This document shows, piece after piece, positions 6,678-41,523 of a stretch of 64,000 bases of DNA (positions are counted from its first letter, which is position 1; each line of letters begins with the position of its first letter). The stretch spans positions 118,077 to 182,076 of the forward strand of contig DASXUG010000001.1 of NCBI GenBank assembly GCA_036504995.1, read 5' to 3'. The notes beneath the pieces are model-generated. The model was given only the letters and a program-made list of their open reading frames with translations, searched no databases and was not told the origin of the DNA. A program made the position numbers and the translations under genes. Source of the DNA: Methylophilaceae bacterium (GTDB taxonomy: Bacteria > Pseudomonadota > Gammaproteobacteria > Burkholderiales > Methylophilaceae).

Positions 6678-9266
6678 ATGCGATTTGATAAATTAACGAC
6701 CAAATTTCAGCAAGCTTTAAATGACGCACAAAGCTTAGCGGTAGGGCACGACAATCCTAATATAGAAGCACAGCATTTATTATCTGCATTGATCAATCAA
6801 GAAGACGGCGGCACGGCTTCTATCCTAGGGCGCGCAGGCGTTAATATCGAGCCACTAAAGACCAGTTTGCAAACAGCGATTGCGAACTTGCCTAAGGTTA
6901 GTAGTGCCACAGGCGAGGTCAGTATTTCTCGCGATTTAAATAACTTACTCAACCTCACTGATAAATATGCGCAAAAACGTGGTGATAGCTATATTGCTAG
7001 CGAAATGTTTTTGCTGGCATTGGCGGATGACAAAGGTGAGACGACCAAACTACTTAAGCAAAATGGCATGAGTAAATCTGCGCTCGAAGCTGCGATTCAA
7101 GCCGTGCGTGGCAATGATCAAGTGAATAATCAAGAGTCTGAAAATAATCGTGAATCACTCAAAAAATATACAGTAGATTTAACCGAGCGTGCGCGTTCTG
7201 GCAAGCTGGACCCAGTGATTGGGCGAGATGATGAAATTCGCCGCGCCATTCAGGTGCTGCAACGTCGCACCAAAAATAACCCCGTGTTAATCGGTGAGCC
7301 AGGGGTTGGTAAAACTGCGATTGTTGAAGGTTTGGCACAACGCATTATCAATGGTGAAGTGCCAGAGTCACTCAAAAACAAACGCGTATTATCCCTTGAT
7401 ATGGCGAGCTTAATTGCAGGTGCGAAATACCGCGGCGAGTTTGAAGAGCGCTTGAAATCAGTTTTGAAAGAATTAGCACAAGATGAAGGCCAAACTATCG
7501 TATTTATTGATGAGCTACACACCATGGTGGGCGCGGGTAAGGCAGAAGGTGCCATGGATGCGGGCAACATGCTCAAGCCCGCTTTGGCGCGCGGTGAGTT
7601 GCACTGTGTGGGCGCTACTACCTTAGATGAATACCGCAAATACATCGAAAAAGATGCTGCTTTGGAGCGCCGCTTTCAAAAAGTATTGGTGGATGAACCG
7701 AGCGTGGAAGCTACCATCGCCATTTTGCGTGGATTACAAGAAAAGTACGAGCTACATCATGGTGTAGAAATTACTGACCCAGCGATTGTTGCTGCGGCAG
7801 AGCTTTCCCATCGCTATATTACTGACCGCTTTTTGCCAGATAAAGCGATTGATTTGATTGATGAAGCGGCTTCACGCATCAAAATGGAAATCGATTCCAA
7901 ACCAGAAGTGCTGGATAAAATGGATCGACGTTTAATTCAGCTCAAGATTGAACGTGAAGCCGTGAAGCGCGAAAAAGATGAAGCCTCACGCAAACGCCTA
8001 GATTTAATTGAAGAAGAAATTGGGCGCTTAGGCAAAGAGTACGCCGACATGGAAGATATTTGGAAGGCAGAAAAAGCTGCGGTTCAAGGCTCTGCACATA
8101 TCAAAGAAGCGATTGATAAAATTAAAGTGCAGATGGAAGAGGCGACACGCAAAGGTGACTGGCAGCGCGTGTCTGAGTTGCAATACGGCAAATTACCACA
8201 ATTGGAAGCGCAGCTTAAAAAGGCTGATAGTGAGGCATCTAAAGGCGCTGTGCAGCAGAATAAACTCTTGCGTACTGAAGTAGGTGCAGAAGAAATTGCG
8301 GAAGTAGTCAGTCGTGCGACAGGTATTCCTGTGTCCAAAATGATGACTGGCGAGCGTGAAAAATTGCTGACTATGGAGAGCAAGTTGCATGAGCGCGTGG
8401 TTGGACAAGATGAAGCGGTGCGCTTGGTGTCCGATGCTATTCGTCGTTCCCGTTCAGGCTTGAGCGACCCCAATCGCCCGTATGGTTCCTTCCTGTTTTT
8501 AGGACCAACTGGTGTGGGTAAAACGGAACTATGCAAAGCGTTGGCAGGCTTTTTGTTCGACTCAGAAGAGCACCTGATTCGTATCGACATGAGTGAGTTT
8601 ATGGAGAAACATTCTGTTTCACGCTTGATTGGTGCGCCTCCTGGCTATGTGGGCTATGAAGAGGGTGGTACCTTGACTGAGGCTGTGCGTCGCAAACCAT
8701 ACTCCGTGATTTTGTTGGACGAAGTAGAAAAAGCCCATCCAGACGTATTTAACGTGTTGCTACAGGTGTTAGATGATGGTCGTTTAACCGATGGGCAAGG
8801 GCGCACAGTAGACTTCAAAAATACGGTAGTGATTATGACCTCTAATCTCGGTAGCCATATGATACAAAGTATGAACGACCAAGATTACCAAGTGGTTAAA
8901 CTCGCAGTGATGGGCGAAGTGAAAACGCACTTCCGTCCAGAGTTTATTAACCGTATTGATGAAGTCGTGGTATTCCATAGTTTGGGTGAGGCGCAGGTAC
9001 GCTCGATTGCAAATATTCAGCTTGGCTTGTTGCAAAAACGCCTGAAAGCAATGGATATGCAGCTTGAAATGAGTGATGAAGCTTTAGCTGAAATTGCCAC
9101 CGCAGGGTTTGACGCTATTTATGGCGCAAGACCACTCAAGCGTGCCATTCAGAGTGAGGTGGAAAATCCACTTGCCCGTGAAATCTTGGCAGGTACTTTC
9201 GCCGCTAAAGATACCATTATGGTCAACTTTACAGGCGGAAAAATGGTGTTCAGTAAACCACATTAA
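6678..9266 (+). CDS. clpB: ATP-dependent chaperone/disaggregase ClpB
   Basis: 862 aa. Two AAA+ modules (GEPGVGKT and GPTGVGKT Walker A motifs) separated by a long coiled-coil middle domain. Clp N-terminal repeats. Confidence 0.97.
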
Positions 9267-36810: not shown

Positions 36811-37437
36811 TTATTCGGTCCAAGTTGGATATTTTTCCATCACGCTTGTAAATAAATCTGACGCTACCAGAGTTGCCAGCCAAGCACGTAGTTTTGGATA
36901 GGGGCTAAGCTCAAACCACGCGGCGTCCACTGCTGCAAATTGGCGGATAAACGGAAAAATTGCCACATCTGCAAGACTTAAACGGTCACCCAATAAAAAT
37001 GTTTCTGCGTTTAGACGGTCCTCAAGTAGCTGTAAAAATACCTCACCTTGCGCTCGATACTCTGCTTGCGACTGCTCTGGGAAACGGTCAGGATATTTAT
37101 ATCGATCTAACGCGCGTTTAAATGCACCGTCATTTTCGACTATTAGCCCATCAATGAGTTGCTGAAGTGCTGGTTGCTTAAGCCGCTGCCAGTCAGCTGA
37201 GTCTTGCTGCTGCAATGCCCAGCGCATGATATGTAGGCTTTCTTCCAACACCATGCCGTTTTGTAACACCAGTACAGGCACTGTGCCTTTGGGAGATGCC
37301 TGTAACATAGCGGAGGGTTTGTCACGCAAAGATATTTCACGTATTTCCACTTCTACGTTTGCATAACGTAAAGCCATGCGTGCGCGCATAGCGTAAGGAC
37401 AGCGTCGATAAGAATAAAGGATGTGATGGTTTGGCAT
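36811..37437 (-). CDS. glutathione S-transferase family protein (thioredoxin-like N-domain with CPYA motif)
   Basis: 208 aa. ILYSYRRCPYAMRARMAL...VPVLV N-terminal GST/Grx-like fold plus a helical C-domain. Confidence 0.7.
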   Translation of the reverse strand: MPNHHILYSYRRCPYAMRARMALRYANVEVEIREISLRDKPSAMLQASPKGTVPVLVLQNGMVLEESLHIMRWALQQQDSADWQRLKQPALQQLIDGLIVENDGAFKRALDRYKYPDRFPEQSQAEYRAQGEVFLQLLEDRLNAETFLLGDRLSLADVAIFPFIRQFAAVDAAWFELSPYPKLRAWLATLVASDLFTSVMEKYPTWTE

Positions 37438-37535
37438 AAAAGAGTGTTTATGCTACCACGCCAAAAACTGTAGTGGCATGTGACCGCCGCTTGGCCATGC
37501 AAAATATGTAAATTATCGTTGACAGTTTAAAATTA

Positions 37536-37587
37536 ATGGATTTAAAATGGATTCTTAATGTATTATTTATGGATTTTAAAATACCAT
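37536..37587 (+). promoter_or_regulatory. cluster of ATGGATT repeats, including the imperfect palindrome ATGGATTTTAAAATACCAT, upstream of the LuxR-type gene
   Basis: ATGGATT at 37536, 37547 and 37569. 15-mer ATGGATTTAAAATGG at 37536-37550. Near-palindrome at 37569-37587. Confidence 0.3.
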
Positions 37588-37663
37588 CTAACTGATATAA
37601 ATTATTGGTCTATGGTCAGTTGTTTATTGGGTAATTCGTGGTTTTTTTCTTAGGGGAGCAGAA

Positions 37664-37732
37664 ATGCAACTGATTCGTGTGGGCTTAAGCGCTCCAACTC
37701 AGTTTGTAAGCCAAAACAGTGGATTAACTTAA
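37664..37732 (+). CDS. 22-codon mini-ORF (MQLIRVGLSAPTQFVSQNSGLT), possible leader or small peptide
   Basis: GGGGAG Shine-Dalgarno-like sequence 7 nt upstream of the ATG. The TAA stop (37730-37732) overlaps the AAGGAG Shine-Dalgarno sequence of the next gene. Below the ORF-track length cutoff. Confidence 0.25.
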   Translation: MQLIRVGLSAPTQFVSQNSGLT

Positions 37733-37742
37733 GGAGAATATC

Positions 37743-37970
37743 ATGTGTAACAGCCCATTAACGCCTGCATTACGAAAGTTAATGCATACATGCCAAATTT
37801 TAAAGACAACAGAAGCCAAAGTATTGGCTGCACACCTCAATAAATCACCCGCTACCGTACGTACTGAGTTTCAACGCATTATGACGCTGATGAATGTGAA
37901 TTGTCGTTATGCAGCACTAAAAACGGCTGAGGAAAATGGTTGGATAGAGGATGGTTCGCTTTATCATTAA
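37743..37970 (+). CDS. stand-alone LuxR/GerE-type helix-turn-helix transcription regulator
   Basis: 75 aa. LTPALRKLMH...TTEAKVLAAHLNKSPATVRTEFQRIMTLMNVNCRYAALKTAEENGWI fits the LuxR C-terminal HTH layout. AAGGAG Shine-Dalgarno sequence 6 nt upstream. Confidence 0.65.
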   Translation: MCNSPLTPALRKLMHTCQILKTTEAKVLAAHLNKSPATVRTEFQRIMTLMNVNCRYAALKTAEENGWIEDGSLYH

Positions 37971-37997
37971 TGCGCACTAAATGTATGCATTTGCAGT

Positions 37998-38012
37998 ATG
38001 GATTTTTAATGG
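37998..38012 (+). promoter_or_regulatory. second copy of the ATGGATTTnnAATGG motif, upstream of the 431-aa gene
   Basis: ATGGATTTTTAATGG matches ATGGATTTAAAATGG (37536-37550) at 13 of 15 positions. It lies 62 nt upstream of ATG 38074. Confidence 0.3.
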
Positions 38013-38073
38013 TATCTAACTTAATCTGAAGGTGTTGGGTATATCCCACATATAAACTATTAAGGAGAGAACC

Positions 38074-39369
38074 ATGGACGAACATCAGTCAAAAATCCCT
38101 TGTTGCCCAGAACTCATAGAGGACAATCATTGTGATATTTTCAATTTTACTCGGGTACTCACTTACCCGACCAATGTAGAGTCACGCAATGGGCAGCAAG
38201 TGAGTGTGGAGGTGATTCTACATTTTAAATTTTCACGTTGTACCTTAGGCCTTACGCTTGGCGATCCTGCGTACAGCACCACATTACTCCCTGGCGAAAA
38301 AGTGCGCTTGAGCACCACCGATAGGAGAAGTCGTTTTAGCTTTGATAGTGAGAGCACGTTAAGCTATCGCAGCGAGCAAATCTCTGAAGATCAGTATTTT
38401 ATGACGGCTGCGCAGAAATATATGGCAGACGGTTCTGCCGCCCAGTCAGGACATGCGAGCAGTACATCCGCGAGTAATTGGGATTTTCATGGAGACGCCA
38501 GTGGTAGTATTGGCATACTTTCATTAAGCGCAGATGCCAGCACCAACGCTAGTGGTCATCATAATAGCAGCTCGGTTGCTGATTATTTAAATCAACAAAG
38601 TACCCATATGCAAAGTGCGTCTGCACAAGCTGTTAGCGCTACGCATAAGGCGCACTCAGTTTCTATTGGTGAGGTCTCAAGCCGCACTCACATGCAGGGA
38701 GAGTCAGAAGATCACTATGAGGCATCATCGCGCGAGTTTAGTAATTTAAATAAATGCCACGCAGTGACTTATACCTTTTACCGAATTAATAAAAAACAGA
38801 AAGTTAAATTCGAGCTGCTGGCTATTGAAAAGCGTGTCCTTGATGACAATGCTCCTATTGGCGGTATTCTGCAAACACCCGCCACTAAGCCACTACCCAT
38901 TGCATTGGTGCCGCAAGATATCGCCGCAACTGCAGTGATCAAGCGTAGCACAGCGGCTGGTAATGTGGCAGGTGCAAATCTTGAATCCGCAGCCTCATTA
39001 GCCGCCACACCCAATTTGCTACGTAGCAATTTGTTAATTAATGCTGATTTTAAAACGCCTATCGATAATGCAATTCGAGAAAAAGCCCTTAACTTTGTGA
39101 GCGAGCAATTGGTCGCAAAAAATCTTATTGGTAAAGATGGCAAAGTGACCAAAGAGATTAAGCAAAGTGTTGAATTCGAGTCAGAGTTCTCTCTGCCAAC
39201 CCCAGGCGTCATCGTGAAAGGTTGTTTAGATGAGTGTGATGTTTGTGAGCCGCTACTCAAAGAGCGTATGCAGTTAGAAAACGATTTGCTACGCAAACAA
39301 ATCGAGTTGTTAGATAAGTCACAAGAGTATCGCTGCTGTACTGTCCCCGCAGTGGAGCCGTGCCCTTAG
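38074..39369 (+). CDS. hypothetical 431-aa protein, no family recognised (terminal Cys clusters, S/A/H-rich core, C-terminal coiled coil)
   Basis: Long ORF with a consensus AAGGAGA Shine-Dalgarno sequence 6 nt upstream. No signal peptide or TM segment seen. See findings. Confidence 0.75.
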   Translation: MDEHQSKIPCCPELIEDNHCDIFNFTRVLTYPTNVESRNGQQVSVEVILHFKFSRCTLGLTLGDPAYSTTLLPGEKVRLSTTDRRSRFSFDSESTLSYRSEQISEDQYFMTAAQKYMADGSAAQSGHASSTSASNWDFHGDASGSIGILSLSADASTNASGHHNSSSVADYLNQQSTHMQSASAQAVSATHKAHSVSIGEVSSRTHMQGESEDHYEASSREFSNLNKCHAVTYTFYRINKKQKVKFELLAIEKRVLDDNAPIGGILQTPATKPLPIALVPQDIAATAVIKRSTAAGNVAGANLESAASLAATPNLLRSNLLINADFKTPIDNAIREKALNFVSEQLVAKNLIGKDGKVTKEIKQSVEFESEFSLPTPGVIVKGCLDECDVCEPLLKERMQLENDLLRKQIELLDKSQEYRCCTVPAVEPCP

Positions 39370-39457
39370 GCAGTGTCAAGATAAGGCGTGATGGTGTTCT
39401 AACATCATTGCTATTAATCACTCAATTTAATGAGGCTAAAGAAAAGGAGTCAATCTT

Positions 39458-39739
39458 ATGAACAATAAATTATGGTCATTCACTGTAGGTATAACACTGT
39501 GTATGATTTTAAGCTCACCTGTTTTTGGTAAAGGTGGCTCAGACGCCGCAGAAGGCAAAGTAGTGGGTGGCGACAATCCAGACAAGCTCACCTCAGATAT
39601 TGTGGACTCACATGAAGAGGTGCCACCACCTAGCCATAGCCAAATCAGCAGTTCGGATATTCAAGAACGTAAAGCCGTGCTGAGATGCAAAAAATTAAAG
39701 CCAGCGTTGCAGCAAAAGTGTTTGGATAATTTACCTTAA
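39458..39739 (+). CDS. small secreted protein, unknown function
   Basis: 93 aa. AAGGAG Shine-Dalgarno sequence. Signal peptide MNNKLWSFTVGITLCMILSSPVFG. Acidic middle, basic C-terminus with two Cys. Confidence 0.55.
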   Translation: MNNKLWSFTVGITLCMILSSPVFGKGGSDAAEGKVVGGDNPDKLTSDIVDSHEEVPPPSHSQISSSDIQERKAVLRCKKLKPALQQKCLDNLP

Positions 39740-39766
39740 GATCATCCAAACGGGTGCGCTAAAAAG

Positions 39767-39796
39767 TGTGAGCAACGCTGTAATAGGTTGCTCACA
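39767..39796. terminator. stem-loop terminator between convergent genes
   Basis: TGTGAGCAAC-N10-GTTGCTCACA, a perfect 10-bp stem. AAAAAG on one flank and a T-rich sequence (TTCGGTGTTCT) on the other. Confidence 0.6.
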
Positions 39797-39833
39797 TTCG
39801 GTGTTCTCGTGAGTGCTTGGCTCAGTATTTTCT

Positions 39834-41523
<1,690 letters not shown>

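Follow-up and report, generated by a model that had tools for sequence, protein, structure and literature searches.

Solo regulators of the GerE/LuxR type (PF00196), NarL/FixJ regulators, operons for encapsulin shells with their cargo, gas vesicles and R-bodies, beta-pore-forming toxins together with bacterial gasdermin-protease pairs, and the large families of unannotated "hypothetical proteins" from genomes and metagenomes are the closest described counterparts of a small plus-strand gene module in the genome of a Methylophilaceae bacterium. GerE of Bacillus subtilis comprises 74 amino acids (aa), and the module, located in a stretch of 64,000 nucleotides (contig DASXUG010000001.1, positions 118,077 to 182,076, assembly GCA_036504995.1; hereafter, the window), encodes a helix-turn-helix (HTH) protein of about the same size (75 aa), a 431-aa protein and a 93-aa protein (Table 1). 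Like the GerE/LuxR solos, the 75-aa protein has neither a receiver nor a ligand domain, and a dyad-like DNA site (TGCA-NN-TGCA) adjoins its gene. With the encapsulin, gas-vesicle and R-body operons, by analogy and not by homology, the 431-aa protein and its relatives have in common a patchy distribution due to horizontal transfer, a main subunit that is very strongly conserved beside variable partners, the lack of signal peptides, and a predicted architecture of long beta-hairpins and a coiled coil whose stability would require partners. The beta-pore-forming toxins and gasdermin-protease pairs are alike in their long beta-hairpins, in being cytoplasmic proteins without a signal peptide, in conserved Cys residues near the N-terminus and in a possible protease neighbour, the putative one here being a DUF6345 protein at a single related locus (L001). 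Unnamed homologs that are absent from Pfam and NCBIfam place the 431-aa protein among the unannotated families, from which it differs in the unusual size and the unusual conservation of its family (about 70% identity between phyla), in a gene neighbourhood that recurs and, within Proteobacteria, in its association with a dedicated regulator-operator unit.

Comparison of the window with related loci (numbered here with the prefix L) identifies the module as a regulated accessory cassette that has been reduced from a larger one and whose cargo is a constrained member of a large uncharacterized protein family. The explanation that we favour, with moderate confidence, is that of a transferred, chromosomally settled accessory cassette in which a portable regulator-operator unit is combined with a single cargo gene. 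A preliminary description of the locus had proposed a self-contained, self-regulated accessory cassette, and this proposal is borne out by the conserved operator-like site that accompanies the 75-aa gene and by the presence of the cassette at three chromosomal sites in the Methylophilaceae. The term "orphan", also used there, does not fit: homologs of the 431-aa protein form more than 2,110 clusters, which span at least six phyla and all lack annotation. The three larger open reading frames (ORFs) are genuine genes under constraint. In comparisons of the window with its syntenic relatives L031, L033 and L001, where the 431-aa protein is 95%, 90% and 87% identical to the window copy, the ratio of nonsynonymous to synonymous substitution rates (dN/dS, calculated by the Nei-Gojobori method) was 0.06-0.15 for the 75-aa gene, 0.07 for the 93-aa gene and as low as 0.02-0.05 for the 431-aa gene, indicating strong purifying selection on the latter.

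The first of the three chromosomal sites is the gst/murU interval, occupied in the window, L001 and L031 to L035. The second, between a 191-aa gene and yjbQ in Methylotenera, contains genes for the HTH protein, a 711-aa protein and a 432-aa protein in L002 and L003, and for the HTH protein and a 702-aa protein only in Methylotenera versatilis 301; in M. mobilis JLW8 nothing lies between the conserved hypothetical gene and UPF0047/yjbQ, and judged by gene order this site appears empty (PMC3728764 Tables S2-S4). The third is the interval between rnhB and a ferredoxin gene in Methylophilus. At the window site no tRNA, integrase or flanking repeat was found and the guanine-plus-cytosine (GC) content equals that of the flanks, so that the site bears no mark of recent insertion. 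Searches with the 431-aa family gave no tblastn match in 72,556 plasmids or 50,697 phages and none in IMG/VR, and a phage, plasmid or integrative mobile element was rejected, all mobile-element tests being negative. The unremarkable GC content, the lack of integrase, tRNA or repeat, and the identical position in the window and all relatives sampled (L001, L031 to L035) would also be expected if the genes were a core pair specific to a clade of the Methylophilaceae, that is, a conserved hypothetical protein with its local regulator, and neither accessory nor transferred. We consider this improbable, however, given that the cassette occurs at two other loci in sister genera, one of them empty in M. 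mobilis JLW8, that its content varies (with or without the 711-aa gene, and with either a 533-aa or the 93-aa gene), and that the protein tree is incongruent with taxonomy. As a separate observation, the Methylotenera cassettes (L036 7648-11052, i.e. M. versatilis 301, CP002056.1, together with L002 and L003) lie directly upstream of the YjbQ/UPF0047 gene and a small eCIS_core (PF13699) gene.

The reduction of the cassette can be read from the alignment to L001. Sequence on either side of the 711-aa gene of L001 can be aligned with the window, and the overlap between the two alignments coincides exactly with a conserved element of 24 nucleotides (nt) that flanks the 711-aa gene in L001; the simplest reading of this overlap is a deletion, and the window's clade apparently lost the 711-aa gene by recombination between the two 24-nt copies. 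We propose an ancestral cassette composed of the HTH gene, a gene for a protein of about 711 aa with an immunoglobulin (Ig)-like array, and the 431-aa gene. From it the window's clade would have deleted the 711-aa gene and to it would have added the small secreted 93-aa protein, which one sub-lineage would have lost again. The 431-aa protein would then work on its own, without a partner, because purifying selection persists in the absence of the partner and because the family is solo in most other phyla. A silent or decaying 431-aa gene had been envisaged in the preliminary description, and the module might be seen as a decaying remnant, the gene having been functionless since the loss of its 711-aa partner: the window lacks the partner and DUF6345 genes, L031 is losing the 93-aa gene, L003 and L007 have split or fragmentary partners, and M. 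versatilis 301 has lost the 431-aa gene. The selection data contradict such decay. Intact ORFs are found in the window, in L031 and L032 and in L033 to L035, three partner-less lineages with pairwise dN/dS of 0.03-0.05 at dS of 0.5-1.7; the promoter, the ribosome-binding site and the operator candidate are all conserved, and the family is commonly solo elsewhere. We regard decay as very unlikely.

The 24-nt element starts eight bases 3' of the stop codon of the 75-aa gene and is unique in the window, 0 chance matches being expected. An exact 22-mer is found between the HTH gene and the first cargo gene in L031 to L035, L036 to L038 and L119/120. It is present in the window's clade, in M. versatilis 301 and in Methylophilus, at three different loci in three genera; it occurs twice in L001, with one copy before each large gene, and the 24-nt element is invariant in the alignment. 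A relaxed motif, ATGTATGCA-NN-TGCAG, is located 10-35 nt 3' of the HTH stop codon in 9 of the 10 contexts with varying cargo, including Methylococcaceae and other metagenome-assembled genomes (MAGs) in which four secreted proteins, a 147-aa protein or an 890-aa protein are encoded downstream (background frequency of TGCANNTGCA, 0.11 per kb). This conserved site is a candidate binding site of the 75-aa regulator, and, since the motif is kept 3' of the HTH gene whatever cargo follows, regulator and site would seem to constitute a portable unit. In the mechanism that we infer, a dimer of the 75-aa LuxR/NarL-type HTH protein would bind the ATGTATGCA-NN-TGCAG site and control the promoter of the 431-aa gene. 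The position of the candidate operator immediately 3' of the regulator gene, and the mobility of the pair in front of unrelated cargo, set it apart from the GerE/LuxR solos. A sigma-54 reading of the site was rejected, as no GG at the right spacing was seen by eye.

Several observations on the unit are worth recording. In a Methylococcaceae MAG (L123 6001-11122), the HTH family gene and the motif are followed by four unrelated secreted proteins, of which one has two CxxCH haem motifs and another is beta-propeller-like; the unit of regulator and operator therefore also occurs independently of the 431/711 cassette. In Nitrosomonas sp. Nm58 (L121 6001-6252), a solo HTH gene lacks both the downstream motif and a co-directional cargo gene; it may be what is left of a stranded unit. 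The coding region of the 75-aa protein (window 37781-37791, AATGCATACAT) and the downstream element (37981-37991, ATGTATGCATT) are linked by a perfect 11-nt inverted repeat, which may be due to chance or be part of the regulatory or recombination logic. The genes of the HTH-operator-cargo unit of M. versatilis 301, M301_0563 and M301_0564, are transcribed under three conditions, at low to moderate levels and with no significant change between conditions (PMC3728764 Tables S5-S7).

The 75-aa protein belongs to a small family of 95 clusters with an invariant RTEFQR helix, the taxonomically named members of which all come from Methylophilaceae, Methylococcaceae, Nitrosomonas or unclassified Proteobacteria, i.e. 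from methylotrophic or nitrifying Beta- and Gammaproteobacteria. Among PDB sequences, a family profile of 25 sequences matches residues 154-203 of DesR (4ldz), its C-terminal HTH, with E = 4.3e-4, and more weakly 4zmr, 4hye, ChrA and NarL; with these NarL/FixJ regulators the family aligns over the C-terminal HTH and dimerisation helices. PADLOC-DB v2 yielded only a weak CARF-HTH match (E = 0.003). No receiver (REC) domain with a phospho-acceptor Asp was found in the protein, nor is there an upstream ORF that could supply one. The public annotation as a two-component response regulator was accordingly rejected, as the protein consists of the HTH only and, lacking a receiver domain, is by its sequence a GerE-like solo regulator. 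The earlier designation as a stand-alone LuxR/GerE-type HTH protein thus agrees with the family profile and falls short at the Pfam GerE threshold; this shortfall, the small size of the family and its narrow taxonomy are further differences from the GerE/LuxR solos.

Upstream of the 75-aa gene, a sigma-70-like promoter overlaps a block of ATGGAT repeats (Table 1). The promoter hexamers and the repeats (repeat families D1, D18 and I7) are invariant in the window, L001, L031 and L033, four lineages across which the flanking intergenic DNA diverges and synonymous sites are near saturation. An exact 19-mer of the block is restricted to the gst-murU clade. The block is a candidate autoregulatory operator, through which the 75-aa protein probably controls its own gene. 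Further downstream in the leader, a block with the sequence TTTTTTTCTTAGGGGA (window 37642-37657) is largely conserved in all four syntenic lineages and could be a leader RNA or transcription-start feature; an Rfam scan of the leader gave no match.

At 90% identity the 431-aa family falls into more than 2,110 clusters, and clustering at 50% leaves 463 representatives. Nearly all members have a length of about 430 aa; Pfam domains and names are lacking throughout, and the homologs listed are all unnamed or labelled "hypothetical protein". Longer members of up to 690 aa were considered as domain fusions and rejected as over-extended ORF calls, the sole real fusion being the member P0191. Matches in genomes come from Pseudomonadota, Bacteroidota, Verrucomicrobiota, Actinomycetota, Chloroflexota and Acidobacteriota, and relatives are encoded at 478 further metagenome loci. 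The copies from Methylophilaceae and Methylomonas nest within a Chitinophagaceae clade, with 65-78% identity, and those of Thiobacillus are merely 42-43% identical; this contrast between Bacteroidota and Thiobacillus indicates, on the sequence data, that the family has moved between phyla by horizontal transfer. The preliminary description could not place the protein in any family, and the same holds for the curated libraries and solved structures consulted here: Pfam (2025 copy), NCBIfam (June 2026), PADLOC and PHROGs gave no match, even when 25 diverse members were scanned singly, nor did a sequence profile search of the PDB. Literature searches for DUF6345, DUF1360, the signature peptides and Methylotenera plus LuxR returned no relevant result. 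The only real structural match is to an uncharacterized protein of Yasminevirus, recovered with Foldseek from the BFVD (E = 8e-18, 25% identity); the fold of the 431-aa model is thus shared by an independently predicted giant-virus homolog. This protein, A0A5K0U6Q4 of Yasminevirus sp. GU-2018, a giant virus of amoebae, is a 642-aa homolog of the family and suggests gene flow between bacteria and giant viruses.

The neighbours of the family vary by lineage. At Bacteroidota-like loci the usual order, sometimes permuted, is the 431-family gene, a partner of about 710-760 aa (forms C1 or C30), a DUF1360 membrane protein and a protein of about 85 aa. In the Methylophilaceae the order is HTH, 711-aa partner (form C5) and 431-aa gene, a layout kept in L001, L002 and L003. 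The 431-family gene is sometimes followed by a DUF6345 gene. The partner belongs to a large unnamed family of its own (more than 845 clusters), and its structural model, with a predicted local distance difference test (pLDDT) score of 83.6, is an array of Ig-like beta-sandwiches whose structure matches are to generic Ig/MG-domain proteins only. Library searches with the partner proteins (711 aa, C1, C30, DUF6345, C2 and C3) were uninformative save for DUF6345, for DUF1360, which matches the phage family phrog_781, and for a borderline GEVED match. Genes for the 431 family and the partner are adjacent in most Bacteroidota-like and Methylophilaceae loci, and one member of the 431-aa family begins with a domain that shares 49% identity with the N-terminal domain of the C30 partner (E = 4e-32); this sharing of a domain by shuffling supports a functional coupling of the two families, as judged from their sequences. 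The 431-aa gene is solo in most loci of other phyla and in a metagenome group of about 50% identity, and in M. versatilis 301 and Methylophilus the HTH gene and the partner are retained but a 431-aa gene is not present; each large gene can therefore persist alone. Two cases of partner erosion were seen beside an intact 431-family gene, one in a Methylotenera MAG, where the partner is split into 76 and 568 aa (L003 3973-5917), and one in Methylomonas defluvii, where fragments of 158 and 108 aa are left (L007 7339-8140); of the two genes, the partner seems the more prone to decay. In L001, the closest full cassette, a 533-aa DUF6345 protein (7355-8956) adjoins the 431-family gene and has an HSGHG...STCYS pattern, which may resemble the His/Cys dyad of clan-CD cysteine peptidases; this protein had no match in the PDB or NCBIfam.

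The AlphaFold2 (AF2) model of the 431-aa protein, built from a 25-sequence alignment, has a pLDDT of 66.6 (80-90 in the core) and a predicted template-modelling (TM) score of 0.57. It contains four very long strands (residues 20-36, 42-71, 231-255 and 368-385), of which 42-71 and 231-255 have 25-30 residues, long helices including a C-terminal one of 29 residues, and two disordered linkers that make up about 25% of the protein. Conserved sequence features of the family include PCCP near the N-terminus, TLLPGEKVRL, N-x-C-H (226-229), CxxxCxxC (384-391) and a C-terminal YRCC (419-422); C10, E75, R84, E210, E216, R220, N224, N226, C228-H229, C388 and E392 are nearly invariant. From the model the protein is most likely, by a modest preponderance, the protomer of a large homo-oligomeric assembly with very long beta-hairpins and a C-terminal coiled coil, stabilised by the conserved Cys and His residues through metal or disulfides, because a monomer could not stabilise strands of 25-30 residues and because such conservation is typical of self-assembling subunits. 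What the predicted assembly would do is a more tentative matter: a cytoplasmic or envelope-associated structural scaffold or compartment is one possibility, and a membrane-acting toxin or defence effector is a slightly weaker one. The comparison with encapsulins, gas vesicles and R-bodies has its limits in that no HK97 or other known shell or filament fold is present, the assembly of the 431-aa protein being a prediction, and in that the partner here is an Ig-like array and not an enzyme cargo. The nearly invariant polar and Cys/His positions, from C10 to C388 and E392, and the CxxxCxxC motif would suit a metal-binding enzyme or a redox or stress protein that is not an assembly subunit, and the same HTH family precedes a di-heme protein in a Methylococcaceae MAG. 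Within CxxxCxxC, however, C384 and C391 are not invariant; neither an enzyme family nor a fold was matched, about a quarter of the protein is disordered linker and the C-terminal helix is coiled-coil-like, so that we give an enzyme of this kind little credence. A radical S-adenosylmethionine (SAM) enzyme in particular was rejected, since the motif is C-terminal, its first and last Cys vary and Pfam gave no match.

An effector function can be stated more specifically, namely that the 431-aa protein is a pore-forming or membrane-damaging toxin, bacteriocin or abortive-infection protein, made in the cytoplasm and held off by the HTH protein. In full cassettes the partner would target or sense, the DUF1360 protein would act in release in a holin-like manner, and the small or DUF6345 protein would be an immunity factor or an activating protease. 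Long beta-hairpins in the model are consistent with this proposal, as are the match of DUF1360 to phrog_781, the DUF6345 gene with its H-G...C pattern in L001, the lack of a signal peptide on both the 431-aa protein and its partner of about 711 aa, despite partner domains typical of extracellular proteins, and the patchy, transfer-shaped distribution. The top, insignificant PDB fold matches are pore or prepore states of pleurotolysin, OlyA/PlyB, NetF, leukocidin, monalysin and perforin-2. This weak beta-pore-former theme was not counted as evidence: Foldseek probabilities do not exceed 0.07, and TM-scores lie below 0.1. The proposal is further weakened by the lack of an amphipathic transmembrane-hairpin signal in a hydrophobic-moment analysis, by neighbours that are housekeeping genes and not defence islands, by the absence of the family from the plasmids, phages and IMG/VR sequences searched, by a conservation (dN/dS 0.03, 70% identity across phyla) that is extreme and unusual for toxins or defence proteins, and by the frequency with which the gene stands solo without a candidate immunity gene. 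Membership of known classes was likewise not borne out. With a best PDB E-value of 0.054, the model had no significant fold match to MACPF/CDC, aerolysin or haemolysin; no gasdermin was among the 50 PDB fold matches listed and the window has no protease; and neither the 431-aa protein, the 93-aa protein nor any partner had a significant match among the anti-phage defence systems of PADLOC-DB v2. We therefore hold the effector proposal to be rather unlikely, and continue to prefer a self-assembling protomer.

Several points weigh against the favoured explanation, in which a portable regulator-operator unit controls a self-assembling cargo protein. Against Pfam GerE the 75-aa protein reaches 13.2 bits (E = 0.07), where 23.5 are required. 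Instead of being an operator, the conserved site could act as a promoter element or at the RNA level. No transmembrane segment was found in the 431-aa protein, and the beta hydrophobic moment of its Ser/Gly-rich linker, about 1.0, is no higher than that of the rest of the protein. With an AF2 model of middling quality, the conclusions "no known fold" and "long strands" are uncertain, the best Foldseek match in the PDB having E = 0.054, a probability of 0.07 and a TM-score below 0.1. Binding of the regulator to the site, the transcript and the protein at this locus, and oligomerisation are predictions, and parsimony is the basis for reading the indel as a loss here and not as a gain in L001.

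The preliminary description had raised the prospect that the 75-, 431- and 93-aa genes travel together, which they do not: the 93-aa gene is confined to a narrow clade, and the HTH family precedes different cargo elsewhere. A Sec-type signal sequence, as had been suggested for the 93-aa protein, is indeed seen at its N-terminus; it was read from the residues by eye, the putative cleavage sites being placed at VFG/K in the window and AFA/M in L033. The protein is 77% identical to the L033 copy. Its gene is intact in L033 to L035 and mostly deleted in L031, where a 3' remnant is left; L001 has unrelated DNA with the 533-aa DUF6345 gene in its place, and all loci outside the narrow clade lack it. 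Searches of Pfam, NCBIfam, PADLOC and PHROGs gave no family match for it. The 94-nt intergenic region 39740-39833, which separates the 93-aa gene from the convergent murU gene, folds at -33.5 kcal/mol (z = -4.1) and contains a stem-loop, which L033 keeps through compensatory changes and which a consensus terminator scan missed, its loop being 10 nt long. The hairpin had been described as closing the module; it is present, and its T-run serves murU at least equally, as the only such run, a T5 run following the stem, is on the minus strand (A5 at 39761-39765 of the plus strand) and the plus strand has no T-tract. By its sequence the stem-loop is therefore a terminator at least of the murU-amgK operon and is possibly bidirectional.

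The anatomy of the locus otherwise agrees with the preliminary description. All four plus-strand ORFs are present as reported, and AAGGAG lies 6-7 nt 5' of the starts of the three larger ones (37731-37736, 38062-38067 and 39445-39450). The upstream DNA is AT-rich (GC 0.36 at 37400-37799) and contains repeats, with a further ATGGAT copy at 37998. Both flanks are on the minus strand, with GST at 36811-37437 on one side and a murU-like NTP_transferase at 39834-40559 followed by an APH/amgK-like gene on the other; beyond this nucleotidyltransferase and kinase lie lptD-surA-pdxA. Public entries for the three larger proteins, HEY3299273.1 to HEY3299275.1, come from a Methylophilaceae MAG and bear the labels "DNA-binding response regulator", "hypothetical protein" and "hypothetical protein". 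Only the 22-codon mini-ORF has to be struck from the module: it is not conserved even where the 431-aa protein is 95% identical, had no family match and is probably not a gene, and a role as leader peptide or attenuator was rejected for the same lack of conservation. An antisense ORF of 172 aa inside the 431-aa gene (window 38778-39296, minus strand), with a similar one of 202 aa in L003, is probably a compositional by-product of the sense frame and not a gene.

Table 1. Features of the module and its candidate control elements (positions in the window)
Feature	Position	Strand	Remarks
Sigma-70-like promoter of the 75-aa gene	37519..37548	+	TTGACA, 18 nt, TAAAAT; 11/12 consensus positions
ATGGAT repeat block	37536..37580	+	Copies at 37536, 37547 and 37569; overlaps the -10 element and start region
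22-codon mini-ORF	37664..37732	+	ATA replaces ATG in L031; no equivalent ORF in L033 or L001
75-aa stand-alone LuxR/NarL-type HTH regulator	37743..37970	+	HEY3299273.1; family profile versus DesR HTH
24-nt cis-element TAAATGTATGCATTTGCAGTATGG	37978..38001	+	Core TGCA-TT-TGCA at 37986-37995; candidate operator or activator site of the 431-aa gene promoter
431-aa protein	38074..39369	+	HEY3299274.1; large uncharacterized cross-phylum family
93-aa lineage-specific small protein	39458..39739	+	Sec-type signal sequence (VFG/K here, AFA/M in L033); C-terminal C-x10-C
Stem-loop between the convergent 93-aa and murU genes	39766..39797	.	11-nt arms 39766-39776 and 39787-39797; 10-nt loop

In its broadest form the proposal would be that the 431-aa protein is the first representative of a new class of bacterial proteins that self-assemble, are highly constrained and have a fold unlike any solved. 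The family would have spread among phyla (Bacteroidota, Proteobacteria and others) and reached a giant virus; it would normally be accompanied by an Ig-like-array adaptor and a small membrane protein, build an unrecognised cellular structure or act as a new effector, and in methylotrophs have been captured by a portable mini-regulator with its operator. We put this forward as a speculative scenario. "New" means here that the 431-aa protein is not assignable to anything known; its functional role is a prediction. With more than 2,000 clusters and repeated transfer, the family is unnamed, lacks a Pfam or NCBIfam model as well as a structural relative, and is not mentioned in the literature searched; its study clearly promises a new protein fold and, probably, a new cellular function. 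Cultured carriers are available for the family (Methylomonas defluvii OY6, M. albis and Niabella species) as well as for the HTH-partner unit (Methylotenera versatilis 301 and Methylophilus). The 75-aa regulator and its site, a compact unit found before unrelated cargo, show neatly, on a small scale, how regulation can evolve by modules, and might serve as a genetic part in methylotrophs.

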